From positions 1 to 64,000 of the forward strand of contig CT868073.1 of the NCBI GenBank assembly GCA_000165425.1: a DNA stretch of 64,000 nucleotides, written 5' to 3'. Below are positions 23,940-32,650 of the stretch, piece by piece; within the stretch, counting starts at the first letter, position 1; every line of letters begins with the position of its first letter. The DNA is from Paramecium tetraurelia (Eukaryota). The translations under genes and the position numbers were made by a program. The notes beneath the pieces are model-generated. The model ran no database searches. It had not been told where the DNA came from and worked only from the letters and a program-made list of their open reading frames with translations.

Positions 23940-24690
23940 CTATTGAGATTAATTTAATTTTAAAGGAATTTAAAAGAGACTGAGACCAAGACTCATGAAT
24001 TTAAATGAAATGAAATGCTACTTTGAATTGAAAAGACAGAGGATTTGTGATATATAGTTTACTTTATCTGTTTTTATCATTTAAATTTTTGACATGAATT
24101 AGTTAAATATAATCTTTTCCATAGAAATGTAAATCATCTCTCTTAACTCATTAATAAATCCAAAACATCACTTCGACAATTAGGACACTTTGTACTATGA
24201 TCAAGCCAAGAAAACAAGCAAGATTTATGGAAAATATGCTTGCAAGGAAGTTATATTATTGTCTCATCTAGTATATATAGATTATTACCTTTTTCGAAAC
24301 TATTACAGCAAATACTGCATTGTCTGTTGGATTTACCCATCTTCATCATCCTTAATTTTTTTTACAATATCTTAGGTACTCCATTACCCTTTTAAAAAAC
24401 CTTATCAATGTTGCTCTACCATAATTGATTTTGTAAAGACTAATTATCAATATTTGGTAGATAATACCACTATCTCTTATCTTATCTGATTAGTAACTAC
24501 ATAATGATTGCATTTATACCTTATTCCCAGATTCTAAGTGGAACTTCTTCAACTTCAAACTCAGATCTTTATTATTCTTCTAAAACTTATTTCATTTCAT
24601 ACCCCTTCTTTCTTCAACTATTGATATCATTCTCCGTGTAATTGTTCTTTATTTTGAGAATTTATTAATGCTGTTATATAAATTAATCAT
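23940..24690 (+). pseudogene. Possible degenerate TMBIM/BI-1-like relic upstream of the intact copy
   Basis: Hydrophobic frame fragments with stops and frameshifts; tail TIDIILRVIVLILRI resembles the family C-terminal helix. Confidence 0.25.
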
Positions 24691-28602: not shown

Positions 28603-29535
28603 AATTATATTTATATTTGACTTATAGAGAAATTAATATAATACAACAAAGTTATTTTCATTATCTACTTCTTAATGAGATATAAACAATGTAATTATAA
28701 TTAATTTTCAATAGTTTAATTCTATGTTGTATTAAAACGCTGATTAATTAAAAAAAACAATAATTTAAAATCCATTTAATTGCAAAATTTAGTTATTATA
28801 CATATCAAGCATAAATAAGATAGAATTTAGAATGAAATATTAATAATCATCTAAGAAAATGTAATAACGAATATGTAGTATATATCTATATGAATTGATC
28901 CTCTTGCTAACAAATGATTTTCATCAATACTTAAATTACATTTCAAATGTTTCAATCTCTATTCTTATTCATCTCCATTTTAACAACGATCAAAGTGGTT
29001 ATTAATGCAAATTAAATAAATAAATGAATATATATTGTTAGGTAATTATTAAAATATTCTATCAAATCAAGACATAAGTATGATAATGGAACAATATTGA
29101 AATAGAAAAATAAGTTCTACTTAAAAAATAAAATTAAGAGAGGATACTTTTAAGACAATTAATCAAATGATACTTCATTATTTAATCTCAAATTATAATA
29201 AAATTAGATGAATTTATGAAAAATGTTCACCCTATTTCGATAAAGTACTTTAACTAGTTAATCAATACATATTATAATTATAGAATATTTCAAATCTTTT
29301 GGTTTATTTATTATGATATTTTTCCTTTTCAATTTTCTATGCGCATTATTTTTATTTTCTTAAAAACGATGCAAAAAGGTATCTTAATATTCATAAAATA
29401 AGATGAGTTAAATGGTAAATGCTAATCCATATAATGTAAAATTTTATTTATTATTAATTTAATAAAATTATAATTCATCAGAACGGTGTGCAATATATTT
29501 TGTTAGCAAGTATAATATATATTAATTTTATAAAT

Positions 29536-30255
29536 ATGTAACAATCCTACGATTGCCCAATTTGTTTAAGCATTTCTGTGGATCCTATCCAACTTTCTCA
29601 ATGCAATCATATATTTTGCTCTGCTTGTATCGTAGATTTACTAGATTACAACAATTAATCCTACAAGTGTCCATTATGCAGATAACTTTACCAGAAGAAT
29701 GAACCATTAATTATTAATTAAGAACTGGCTAAAAAGATTAAGGAGAGTAATCCTGAACTATATGTATAGAGATAATAGCAGATTCTCTAATAACAAATGA
29801 TGTTACCAAATCAAATTAAAGTCAGTGTTGTATATGGTAACCTATATGAAAAAATCAAAAATAATGATAAAAATTAACACCAATGGACTTTAGTTGTGAA
29901 AATGGATTATAATAAGGAATCGGACAGAGTTGCACTTAAGAATTTCGACATCAATAATATGATTGAATCTGTTACATATTAATTACATGCAACTTTTCGT
30001 CCAAGTGTAGTTACAGTTAAACAAGCTCCATTTCAATTACAAAGACTAGGTTGGGGAACATTTATGATTCCTTTCCTCATTAAATTTAAGAAGGAATACA
30101 ATATTCCTAATTTGACAGTCGATCACTATCTTAGTTTTTAGGGAAATGGATCATTGCAAAAATAAATAACTAAATTAGATATAAGTAATGTGAAAGAATA
30201 TCAAGAAATATCAGAATAACAGAACTAATAGCAGCAACTATAATAACAATAATGA
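29536..30255 (+). CDS. RING-HC finger + YEATS domain fusion protein (239 aa, intronless)
   Basis: C3HC4 RING: CPIC..CNHIFCSAC..CPLCR. YEATS: VVYGN..HQWTLVV..IESVTYQLHATF..APFQLQRLGWGTFMIP..HYLSF. Confidence 0.92.
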
Positions 30256-30413
30256 TTAAAATTATAATCTTTAATCAATCCTTTACAGATATATATTATT
30301 ATCATTAAATTATATTAACAGACTAATTAAACGTAAATATCAAAATTGTACTCTCCACTTAATGTATAGAGTTTAGATCAAATTGATATTCAGTTATTTA
30401 AATTTATTATTGA

Positions 30414-32650
30414 ATGGAATTTAATTAATACAAAACAAATGAAGTCAAATCAAATCCAAAATACAAGGGGCTGTTATAGTGGGGTGTATAGAATGGAGTG
30501 TTGATGAAGGGTGTGGATTTTCCAGCTTCATTCGGAGATGTCATAGGAGTAGTCGCCTCTGAAGACTTGCCATCAGATACTGTATTATTATTGATTTAAA
30601 TGTCATTAGGTAATTATTTGCATACCTTAATCATTGATTATTTCACCTGATAAATGCAAGTAGAGCACTCTCATAACAGTGTACAACAGTCATCCAGAAA
30701 TGTTTGATGAAGAAGAAACTAATGAGGCAGAGTTTAACATTTTAAGTATCAATCTCTTGTATCTGAGCATTTTACATGTTCAATGAAAAGAAGAAAGGGG
30801 AATAGTCATTTTATTACCCTTACATTTAGGCGATCTAAACTAGCAACACATTAATGGCTTGGTCGAATGAGGATTTGCAGAAAATTGAAGATCCTCTTAT
30901 ATTAGAAGAATTTTAATTAATTAAATAAGATTTCTTAGGGTTATGGAGTAAGGCCAAGTTAATCTTTGATAACGCTTAGGATATATTTGGAGCCCCAAGA
31001 ATAACAGATAAAAGTGACTTTTTTTGGGCAATAGAATGCGTTATGAGCAGATGTTTTGGATGGGCTCTTAAATCTACTTGTCTAGTTCCCATAGCTGATT
31101 TCCTTAATCATTCTAATAAAGCATGCACACATTATATGGTTCATTCAGCATTGGAAAAGGGTAGTTTTTCTAAATCAGAGGTGTAAGCTAATTTTCAAAA
31201 ACAATATGTCATAAAAAGAAACAATATGAATTTGAGTATTTTAGGTATTGAGGCTGATAATGAGATACAGAAATGGAAAGATGAGAAAATTAAATTTATT
31301 TTAGAGAATAAACAGTGTTTAAGAGATCAGGACTTACTAGTAGATTTGGAAGGAGCATCTATAAATGAGCAAAGAGATATCATAAATAAGATCCATTATG
31401 AATAGATTATTTAAGATCCGAAGTTGAATATATGGGATTTGGAGTCTATCGCTTCATCTGATAGTGAAGATAATGATTCTGATGAAGAAGTTAAATTAGA
31501 GAAGTTTTAACAATATGAGATTTTGAAGATTAAGGAATTGGCAGAATGGAAAATTAGAGAAGAATAAAAAAGAATAGAGAAAGAGTTTTAGTCTATCAAT
31601 TTGAAAAATCAACCTATTGTTACAGTAACCTTGAATCCAGGTATGATGTATTATAGATATAGTAGAGAAGAAAAATAAGGTAATAATTCGTGGATTACCA
31701 TAATATCAGATTGAAGCCATTAAGGCAAAGCTGTTAATTATCAATGGGAGATTAAGGAAGCAACAATAAGAAAAGATTTTGTCTGAAGTTGATGATGTGT
31801 AAAGTAGAGAAGATTAATAATGGGATTGGTTAGATGAATATGATTAAGAAGCCTACTTTTGCATTACAACTACAGCTCCAATTAAGAAATTTCAATAAGT
31901 GACTGTTTCATACGGGAAGAGAACAAATAGATTTTTAATATGTTGGTATGGGTTTGCATTGCTAGAGAATGTGTACAGTTCGTTTAATTTTAGAGTAATT
32001 AGCTGACTAATTAAAGTTATGGCTGAATACTGTGATCCTGGAAGATAAAGAGAAAACCTTAGATTAGATCTTGAACACAATAATTATTAAAAAACTAATA
32101 TATGAGGATGAATCAATTGTAGACAAGATTTCATACAACGGTTACGAAATACCTATTTCATCTTTATCCAAGGAGTTTAGAATAAAAAAGAATAAGTTGA
32201 ATATAGACATAATAAGCGTTTTGCGATTATTCTTATAGATAAAATACGGGAAGGAAAAAGATTTGTTGAGTACGATTCCTATGTCAATTGATTATGAAAT
32301 TGATGTGCTGCAATTTTACTATTCATTGTTACAAACCCTGATGAAGTCTTATTCTTAAGATTTGGTTCAAGATCTTAAAGAATTAGAGTAGACATTTGAA
32401 TATCCAAAAAGATTTGCTGTATGAATTGGTGTTTGATTATTATTAGATCTATATCAATAAAGAGCGGAAGGAAATTTTAATAAGCCAAAGTTAAATTGTG
32501 GAAGAGGCAATCACGATATTAAAAAGGTTTAAGGAAACATAAAAATTGAGGGATAGCTATGTTTCCGATTTGAACATAGAGACAGTGTCAACAATTTCTA
32601 TAATAAAGGGATTAAAGGATTATCTTAAATTATTATATGAATTTTTGTGA
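30414..32650 (+). CDS. SET-domain lysine methyltransferase of the Rubisco-LSMT/SETD3-SETD4-like group
   Basis: GVVASEDLP, FWAIECVMSRCF, LVPIADFLNHS, QVTVSYGKRTNRFLICWYGF. Confidence 0.88.

Follow-up and report, generated by a model that had tools for sequence, protein, structure and literature searches.

A RING-YEATS protein of Paramecium tetraurelia from a widespread protist family of candidate acyl-lysine-guided ubiquitin ligases

YEATS domains are, to our knowledge, known only as readers within acetyltransferase, remodelling and elongation complexes, and we know of no characterised YEATS protein that carries a RING finger. Readers and RINGs do meet in single chains elsewhere: the TIF1-family TRIMs (TRIM24, TRIM28, TRIM33 and TRIM66), of about 1000 residues, carry an N-terminal RING and a C-terminal PHD-bromodomain reader, with B-boxes and a long coiled coil between the two, while UHRF1 combines a RING with readers of histones and DNA. 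Here we describe a gene from Paramecium tetraurelia, at positions 29536-30255 of a 64,000-nucleotide stretch (hereafter the window; GenBank assembly GCA_000165425.1, contig CT868073.1, positions 1 to 64,000, forward strand), that encodes a protein of 239 residues and 27 kDa in which a C3HC4 RING finger precedes a YEATS domain with an intact acyl-lysine cage. The protein shares the logic of the TIF1 TRIMs, placing a RING ubiquitin ligase (E3) module and an acetyl-lysine/histone reader in one chain, but differs from them in its small size and in using a YEATS domain rather than a PHD-bromodomain as the reader. It shows no sign of a B-box, coiled coil, PHD or bromodomain, the only Pfam families above cut-off being RING-type families and YEATS/pYEATS. 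By analogy, the RING-YEATS protein would work like the TIF1 TRIMs or UHRF1, but it belongs to neither family. It is instead a member of a widespread and apparently undescribed protist family, in which each domain is familiar and the joining of RING to YEATS appears to be new. We consider it probable, with some reservation, that the protein is an acyl-lysine-guided RING E3 ligase whose YEATS domain would sit on an acylated lysine, most plausibly of a histone, while its RING would direct ubiquitin to the marked protein or to a neighbour. The features on which the analysis relies are as follows.

29524-30352, plus strand: transcribed region, given as the outer limits of two transcript-like RNA contigs
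29536-30255, plus strand: RING-YEATS coding sequence, 239 codons and a TGA stop in the ciliate code, with 19 TAA/TAG codons read as glutamine
29554-29679, plus strand: C3HC4 RING finger (Pfam zf-C3HC4), residues C7-C48, with ligands C7, C10, C23, H25, C28, C31, C45 and C48
29716-29802, plus strand: family-specific linker, residues 61-89, modelled by AlphaFold2 as two helices (62-71 and 73-89)
29812-30180, plus strand: YEATS beta-sandwich, residues 93-215 (Pfam core 113-202), from PF03366, Foldseek and structural alignment
29983-29997, plus strand: first cage motif, L150-H151-A152-T153-F154, from the HMMER alignment to solved readers (HATF, H151-F154, at 29986-29997)
30049-30063, plus strand: second cage motif, G172-W173-G174-T175-F176, from the same HMMER alignment
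30193-30252, plus strand: glutamine-rich C-terminal tail, residues 220-239, modelled as one helix (220-238)

A sequence-only reading of the window had called an intronless open reading frame (ORF) of 239 residues joining a complete C3HC4 RING to a YEATS domain with the cage motifs HATF and GWGTF, and each part of that description held: the frame runs open to its TGA, RNA reads cross it without joints, and the RING ligands (zf-C3HC4, 2.7e-09), the YEATS domain (PF03366, 3.4e-21) and both motifs lie where they had been placed. Translation followed NCBI table 6, the ciliate nuclear code, in which TGA is the sole stop, and the G+C content of the window is 21-33%. Because long frames are common under this code (35 ORFs of at least 150 residues in 20 kb), ORF length is weak evidence for a gene; a spurious ORF is ruled out instead by the Pfam E-values, the orthologues and the RNA sequencing (RNA-seq) cover taken together. 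Transcription was assessed with two raw oligo-dT RNA-seq runs carrying the same species label (X20 and X21) and with two contig runs (X3 and X4). A 780-nt contig from X4 matches 29524-30303 and an 824-nt contig from X3 matches 29529-30352, both with 0 other letters and 0 gaps, so that a transcript spanning both domains, which the sequence-only reading had set as a test, does exist. Over the ORF lie 78 reads from X20 and 59 from X21, covering every bin of 29544-30257, and all first mates map to the minus strand, the orientation that common stranded protocols give for an mRNA from the plus strand. Throughout 29544-30257 the X20 and X21 reads are free of joints, indels and variant letters. Seven fragment ends pile up at 29555, yet the contigs extend upstream of the ATG. 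Locus 29536-30255 is a real, expressed, intronless gene, and a single unspliced transcript covers RING and YEATS.

The closest database proteins by BLASTP are three orthologues, one in P. primaurelia (84% identity) and two in P. sonneborni (82% and 79%), which places the source within the P. aurelia complex. Their first Met is that of the window protein. A longer frame of 278 residues, opening at an in-frame ATG at 29419, was ruled out, since the contigs begin downstream of that codon, at 29524 and 29529, no reads lie upstream of 29544, and the orthologues share the Met at 29536, which we take as the start. The automatic database names of the orthologues are 'Protein AF-9 homolog' (UniRef) and 'RING-type E3 ubiquitin transferase', the former of which is probably misleading. 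By tblastn, this is the only RING-YEATS gene within the window.

To place the protein among its relatives, we searched 1.84 billion cluster representatives with a profile made from the window protein, the three Paramecium orthologues and two distant hits, which returned 15,910 matches at E ≤ 1e-3, 672 at E ≤ 1e-10 and 77 at E ≤ 1e-30. The domain-architecture search suggested by the sequence-only reading thus finds the RING-YEATS arrangement to be common: a RING regular expression was matched by 124 of the best 150 representatives, a YEATS motif by 133 and both by 108, with the RING N-terminal to the YEATS domain in all 108. Both Pfam domains were recognised in 47 of the 50 top representatives; the other three consist of two YEATS stretches without a RING and may be fragments. 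For conservation counts we used an alignment of 93 sequences chosen by the RING regular expression and at least one YEATS motif, and a further search with a profile of these 93 gave 17 matches at E ≤ 1e-12 among 4283 candidates, with no additional named organisms. Most family members are 210-300 residues long, and a subgroup of 350-420 residues has a RING followed by two tandem YEATS domains. Relatives with two YEATS domains, Ceratium transcripts among them, span 350-444 residues, and several keep the cage motifs in both domains. One relative of 1412 residues (P0136), in which CLU and eIF3_p135 domains precede a C-terminal RING-YEATS, was set aside as a probable merger of neighbouring gene models rather than accepted as a true fusion.

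The taxonomic spread rests on five named representatives among 30 that were looked up: the dinoflagellate Biecheleria cincta, Paramecium primaurelia, Ancoracysta twista, Naegleria lovaniensis and Willaertia magna. The P. primaurelia representative, which has P. pentaurelia in the same cluster, belongs to a second Paramecium paralogue group whose members are 40% identical to the window protein and retain the RING. Heterolobosean members carry an N-terminal extension of 30-60 residues before the RING, which lies at residues 34-46. In the ESM Atlas, a 54-member RING+YEATS cluster (scores 0.96 and 0.94) is mostly from Ciliophora. A further ESM Atlas cluster of 56 members (zf-C3HC4 in 93%, YEATS in 82%, scores 0.92 and 0.94) has named members that are mostly Ascomycota; this is an unverified lead, and if the cluster is real the architecture perhaps occurs in fungi too. 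In a quick tree, support was 98 for the pairing of the Paramecium sequences and 99 each for a clade of Naegleria with Willaertia and for one of dinoflagellates, with the backbone left unresolved; this fits vertical descent within groups and does not date the family. Because the architecture is found in Naegleria, Willaertia, Ancoracysta and dinoflagellates as well, RING-YEATS appears from its distribution to be an old, general eukaryotic module and no ciliate invention.

The YEATS half of the protein is recognised by sequence and by structure. Pfam assigns residues 113-202 to PF03366 with 75.4 bits (cut-off 22; E = 3.4e-21), and Foldseek ranks the Yaf9 YEATS domain first (3.5e-10), with probability 1.00 to Yaf9, GAS41, Taf14, YEATS2, ENL and Sas5. 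In an exhaustive structural alignment (VIA-align) of the predicted model against 48,161 solved representative chains, model residues 90-216 superimposed on YEATS2 with Z = 14.9 (root mean square deviation (RMSD) of 2.6 Å over 116 aligned residues) and on GAS41 with Z = 14.8 (RMSD of 2.1 Å over 110); Yaf9 (chain 3rls) followed with Z = 14.6 (RMSD of 4.2 Å over 135), in an alignment that reaches the C-terminal helix and spans model residues 87-239. Canonical readers as a group (YEATS2, GAS41/YEATS4, Yaf9, Taf14/TAF14b, AF9/ENL and Sas5) share the Pfam family and the same beta-sandwich (Z = 12.0-14.9), at a sequence identity of 17-25% to the solved domains. HMMER scores the sequence best against YEATS2 (about 1e-08) and TAF14b (3e-08), ahead of GAS41 and Yaf9 (about 1e-06). 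Relative to YEATS2 and to most of the family, residues about 123-141 (29902-29958), which connect two strands of the YEATS sandwich, form a stretch longer by some nine residues. The model folds this stretch into two short helices (128-133 and 139-142), and both Paramecium paralogue groups have it. A hidden in-frame intron in this longer loop was ruled out by the reads, which cross it without joints.

The acyl-lysine cage motifs of canonical readers, LH.[ST][FY] and GWG.F, are matched residue for residue. In the HMMER alignments, LHATF stands one-for-one opposite LHPSY of YEATS2, LHSSF of TAF14b and LHESY of GAS41, and GWGTF opposite GWGEF in all three. H151, T153, F154, G172, W173, G174 and F176 occupy what we take to be the acyl-lysine contact positions, and the solved YEATS entries matched are, by their titles, complexes with H3K27ac, H3K27cr, H3K27bz or H3K9ac peptides. 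Across the 93 aligned sequences, the first loop keeps H151 in 80, T or S at 153 in 83 and F or Y at 154 in 90, and the second keeps G172 in 86, W173 in 87, G174 in 91 and F176 in every one. The full pattern H-[ST]-[FY]...G-[WYF]-G-x-F is retained in 68, and 62 of the 93 have both the cage and the RING triad described below intact. The family nevertheless has a signature of its own that sets it apart from canonical readers: the commonest form of its first motif is LHPTF (P in 73/93, T in 75/93), position 175 of GWGxF is T, Y, V or I with E in only 7/93, and a conserved helical linker leads to the RING. The cage histidine is replaced by Asp in 7/93 members.

The label 'Protein AF-9 homolog', the first rank of Yaf9 in Foldseek and the reach of the 3rls alignment through the C-terminal helix (87-239, Z = 14.6) might suggest that the protein is a divergent Yaf9/GAS41 orthologue, a reader subunit of NuA4/SWR1 that gained a RING in ciliates. 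We regard this as very improbable. The same architecture in Heterolobosea, dinoflagellates and Ancoracysta means that the RING is no ciliate addition, YEATS2 and TAF14b score better by sequence, and the structural comparison is a tie among YEATS2, GAS41 and Yaf9 (Z = 14.6-14.9). The Yaf9/GAS41 group has a conserved C-terminal coiled coil for complex assembly. The Paramecium protein has a glutamine-rich C-terminal helix (220-238), and its tail is not conserved in the family, many relatives stopping just after the YEATS fold. The existence of a separate Tetrahymena protein, tYAF9, which co-purified with SWR components (PMC12926916), also argues against the orthologue.

We next consider the RING. 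Residues 7-48 match zf-C3HC4 (PF00097) with 37.2 bits (cut-off 21; E = 2.7e-09), four other RING families (PF13445, PF13639, PF13923 and PF13920) score above their Pfam cut-offs, and all eight zinc ligands are present with cross-brace spacing. The best PDB sequence matches are a RING1B/BMI1 chimera (1.3e-09) and BRCA1 (1.1e-08). By structure, residues 1-75/92 of the model align with the TRIM25 RING-Ubc13~Ub complex with Z = 10.7 (RMSD 2.0, 74 aligned), and the RING with its first helix aligns with PCGF5-RING1B-UbcH5c (Z = 10.7), RNF168 (Z = 10.7) and RNF8-Ubc13/Mms2 (Z = 10.6), followed by RING1B/BMI1, UHRF1, TRAF6, Rad18 and U-boxes. TRIM RINGs are thus among the best matches of residues 1-75 (TRIM69 at Z = 10.3 besides TRIM25), and the chromatin RING E3s RING1B-PCGF, RNF168, RNF8 and UHRF1 fall at Z = 9.1-10.7, with a BRCA1-BARD1 entry at Z = 7.0. 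These chromatin E3s have readers of other kinds, or have them on separate subunits, and the likeness is that of a generic RING fold; since U-boxes and TRIMs score alike, it is no evidence of a shared substrate.

At the face for the ubiquitin-conjugating enzyme (E2), the window protein has I9, P46 and R49, which we take to occupy the positions used by active RINGs for E2 contact and as the linchpin. In the family alignment, residue 9 is aliphatic in 90/93, P46 is kept in 89/93 and position 49 is R in 89/93 and K in 4/93, so that the triad [ILVM]9-P46-[RK]49 is intact in 86/93; these three positions played no part in the selection of sequences. Purely structural RINGs often lose such residues, and their retention argues against a non-catalytic RING that would serve for dimerisation or docking in the manner of BMI1/PCGF or BARD1, in which case the protein would bring acyl-lysine reading to some larger assembly, perhaps by pairing with a cage-degenerate paralogue. 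Several observations do favour such a role: the best sequence matches of the RING, RING1B/BMI1 and BRCA1, are obligate heterodimers, the second Paramecium paralogue group keeps its RING with a degenerate cage, and the two-YEATS chains of dinoflagellates suggest that bivalent reading is useful, which single-YEATS chains could otherwise reach by dimerising. However, the first RING cysteine of the Paramecium protein is preceded by only six residues, which leaves no N-terminal helix, and such a helix forms half of the four-helix bundle of the BRCA1/BARD1 type. Weighing both sides, we judge a non-catalytic RING unlikely.

The two domains appear to be held together as a unit. With the 93-sequence alignment, AlphaFold2 gave a mean predicted local distance difference test score (pLDDT) of 92.7 and a predicted template modelling score (pTM) of 0.80, the five models ranging from 92.2 to 92.7 in pLDDT; with six sequences the values were 76.8 and 0.54. 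The check by AlphaFold that the sequence-only reading had proposed therefore returned both folds, in a model composed of the RING (residues 1 to about 55), helices 62-71 and 73-89, the beta-sandwich at 93-215 and the glutamine-rich helix at 220-238. The linker helix block has pLDDT values of 98, 97 and 89, and its sequence is conserved in the family (of 93: D/N61 in 76, L/I64 in 64, I/L68 in 71, P73 in 58, Y/F76 in 70 and R/K79 in 70). Because the pTM is high for a two-domain protein, the model suggests one rigid unit, in which the conserved linker would fix the position of the RING relative to the YEATS domain. Among the 48,161 representatives, no solved chain was listed that covers both the RING and the YEATS halves.

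Gene and transcript, both folds, and the conservation of zinc ligands, E2-face residues and cage are thus established for the window protein, and from these we infer that the protein binds its ligand, is active as an E3 and acts on chromatin. In the mechanism that we propose, a lysine bearing an acetyl, crotonyl or similar acyl group, most plausibly in the tail of a histone, would be bound by the YEATS pocket; with an E2~ubiquitin brought in by its RING, the enzyme would then ubiquitinate the marked protein itself or its neighbour within that nucleosome. Such a coupling of acyl-lysine reading to ubiquitination would be the most economical reading of a protein with these two domains.

Several points weigh against a ligase of this kind. 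Acyl-lysine binding and E3 activity are both predictions, and the E2-contact and linchpin roles of I9, P46 and R49 are presumed ones. The invariance of the zinc ligands in the alignment is partly built in by the selection of sequences on a RING regular expression. The structural matches of the RING are generic: the scores of chromatin E3s, TRIMs and U-boxes lie within one Z unit of one another, so that the fold is uninformative on substrate. RNA depth is low, at 1-11x per bin in X20 and X21. The cage pattern is departed from in 25/93 relatives, and in the second Paramecium paralogue group LDETF and GWDVF replace LH.TF and GWG.F; together these indicate that the pocket is dispensable in some members. 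The paralogue with Asp in place of His may have an altered ligand specificity or be a reader-dead partner.

Some of the same observations bear on a different possibility, namely that the protein is an E3 for non-histone or non-acyl targets, its YEATS domain recognising acylated cytoplasmic or metabolic proteins, or an unmodified motif, with no role at chromatin. A Pfam scan found no other chromatin domain and the protein has no evident nuclear signal; the Glu found in the GWGEF motif of YEATS2, TAF14b and GAS41 is present at position 175 in only 7/93 members; and the cage varies in 25/93. Yet the YEATS domains of solved structure that it matches are all readers of acylated histone lysines, and the cage of the window protein itself is intact, which together make a target away from acylated histones rather improbable in our view. 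We continue to favour an acyl-lysine-guided RING E3 ligase with a histone as its most plausible substrate.

A more specific picture, which we hold only tentatively and think somewhat doubtful, is that RING-YEATS represents a separate and very old YEATS lineage, present in at least Alveolata, Discoba and Provora and perhaps in fungi, and that its members are rigid single-chain 'read-and-write' enzymes, which would dock on an acylated histone lysine and ubiquitinate a defined neighbouring site. We know of no direct relay from acylation to ubiquitin in animals, plants or budding yeast, none of which were surveyed here. The sequence-only reading had been aware of no characterised example of the architecture, and our search agrees with it: no description of a natural RING-YEATS protein was found in the full-text literature, subscription-only papers being outside its scope. 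Of 69 papers that mention YEATS domains together with RING fingers, the 30 listed all concern mammals or disease. Two apparent matches to 'YEATS' with C3HC4 (PMC4966962 and PMC1079808) were discarded, since 'Yeats' is an author name in the passages matched. That reading had further suggested that the protein would matter for nuclear dualism and programmed DNA elimination, and here it finds no support, because the family occurs also in Naegleria, Willaertia, Ancoracysta and dinoflagellates, lineages in which we know of neither nuclear dualism nor programmed DNA elimination.

Around the gene, the window holds features of other kinds. A separate small RING-H2 ORF on the minus strand (24134-24595; zf-RING_2, 1.8e-12) is unrelated to the RING-YEATS family. 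Upstream of RING-YEATS on the plus strand, an ORF fragment at 26951-27724 matches Helicase_C (3.2e-08) in a translation that crosses apparent short introns, and looks like a DEAD-box (eIF4A-like) helicase gene. Downstream, plus-strand RNA-seq cover restarts about 170 bases past the stop codon, at 30426-30500, where the next gene probably begins; its ORF pieces at 30414-30650 and 30776-31714 gave no Pfam match.

For the biology of Paramecium and of the family, arrangements beyond the single protein can be envisaged. In Paramecium, a paralogue whose cage is intact might act as the active partner of one whose cage is degenerate and which would regulate it, and the tandem-YEATS forms of dinoflagellates hint that bivalent reading is useful, a state that single-YEATS forms might reach by dimerising. 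The confident 239-residue model with its fixed domain geometry is attractive for structural work and as a template for acyl-lysine-directed degraders. Members of the family occur in several supergroups, and since some of these organisms, Paramecium and Naegleria among them, are amenable to culture and manipulation, the prediction can be put directly to the test. If it is true, RING-YEATS would be the simplest known device for converting lysine acylation into ubiquitination.

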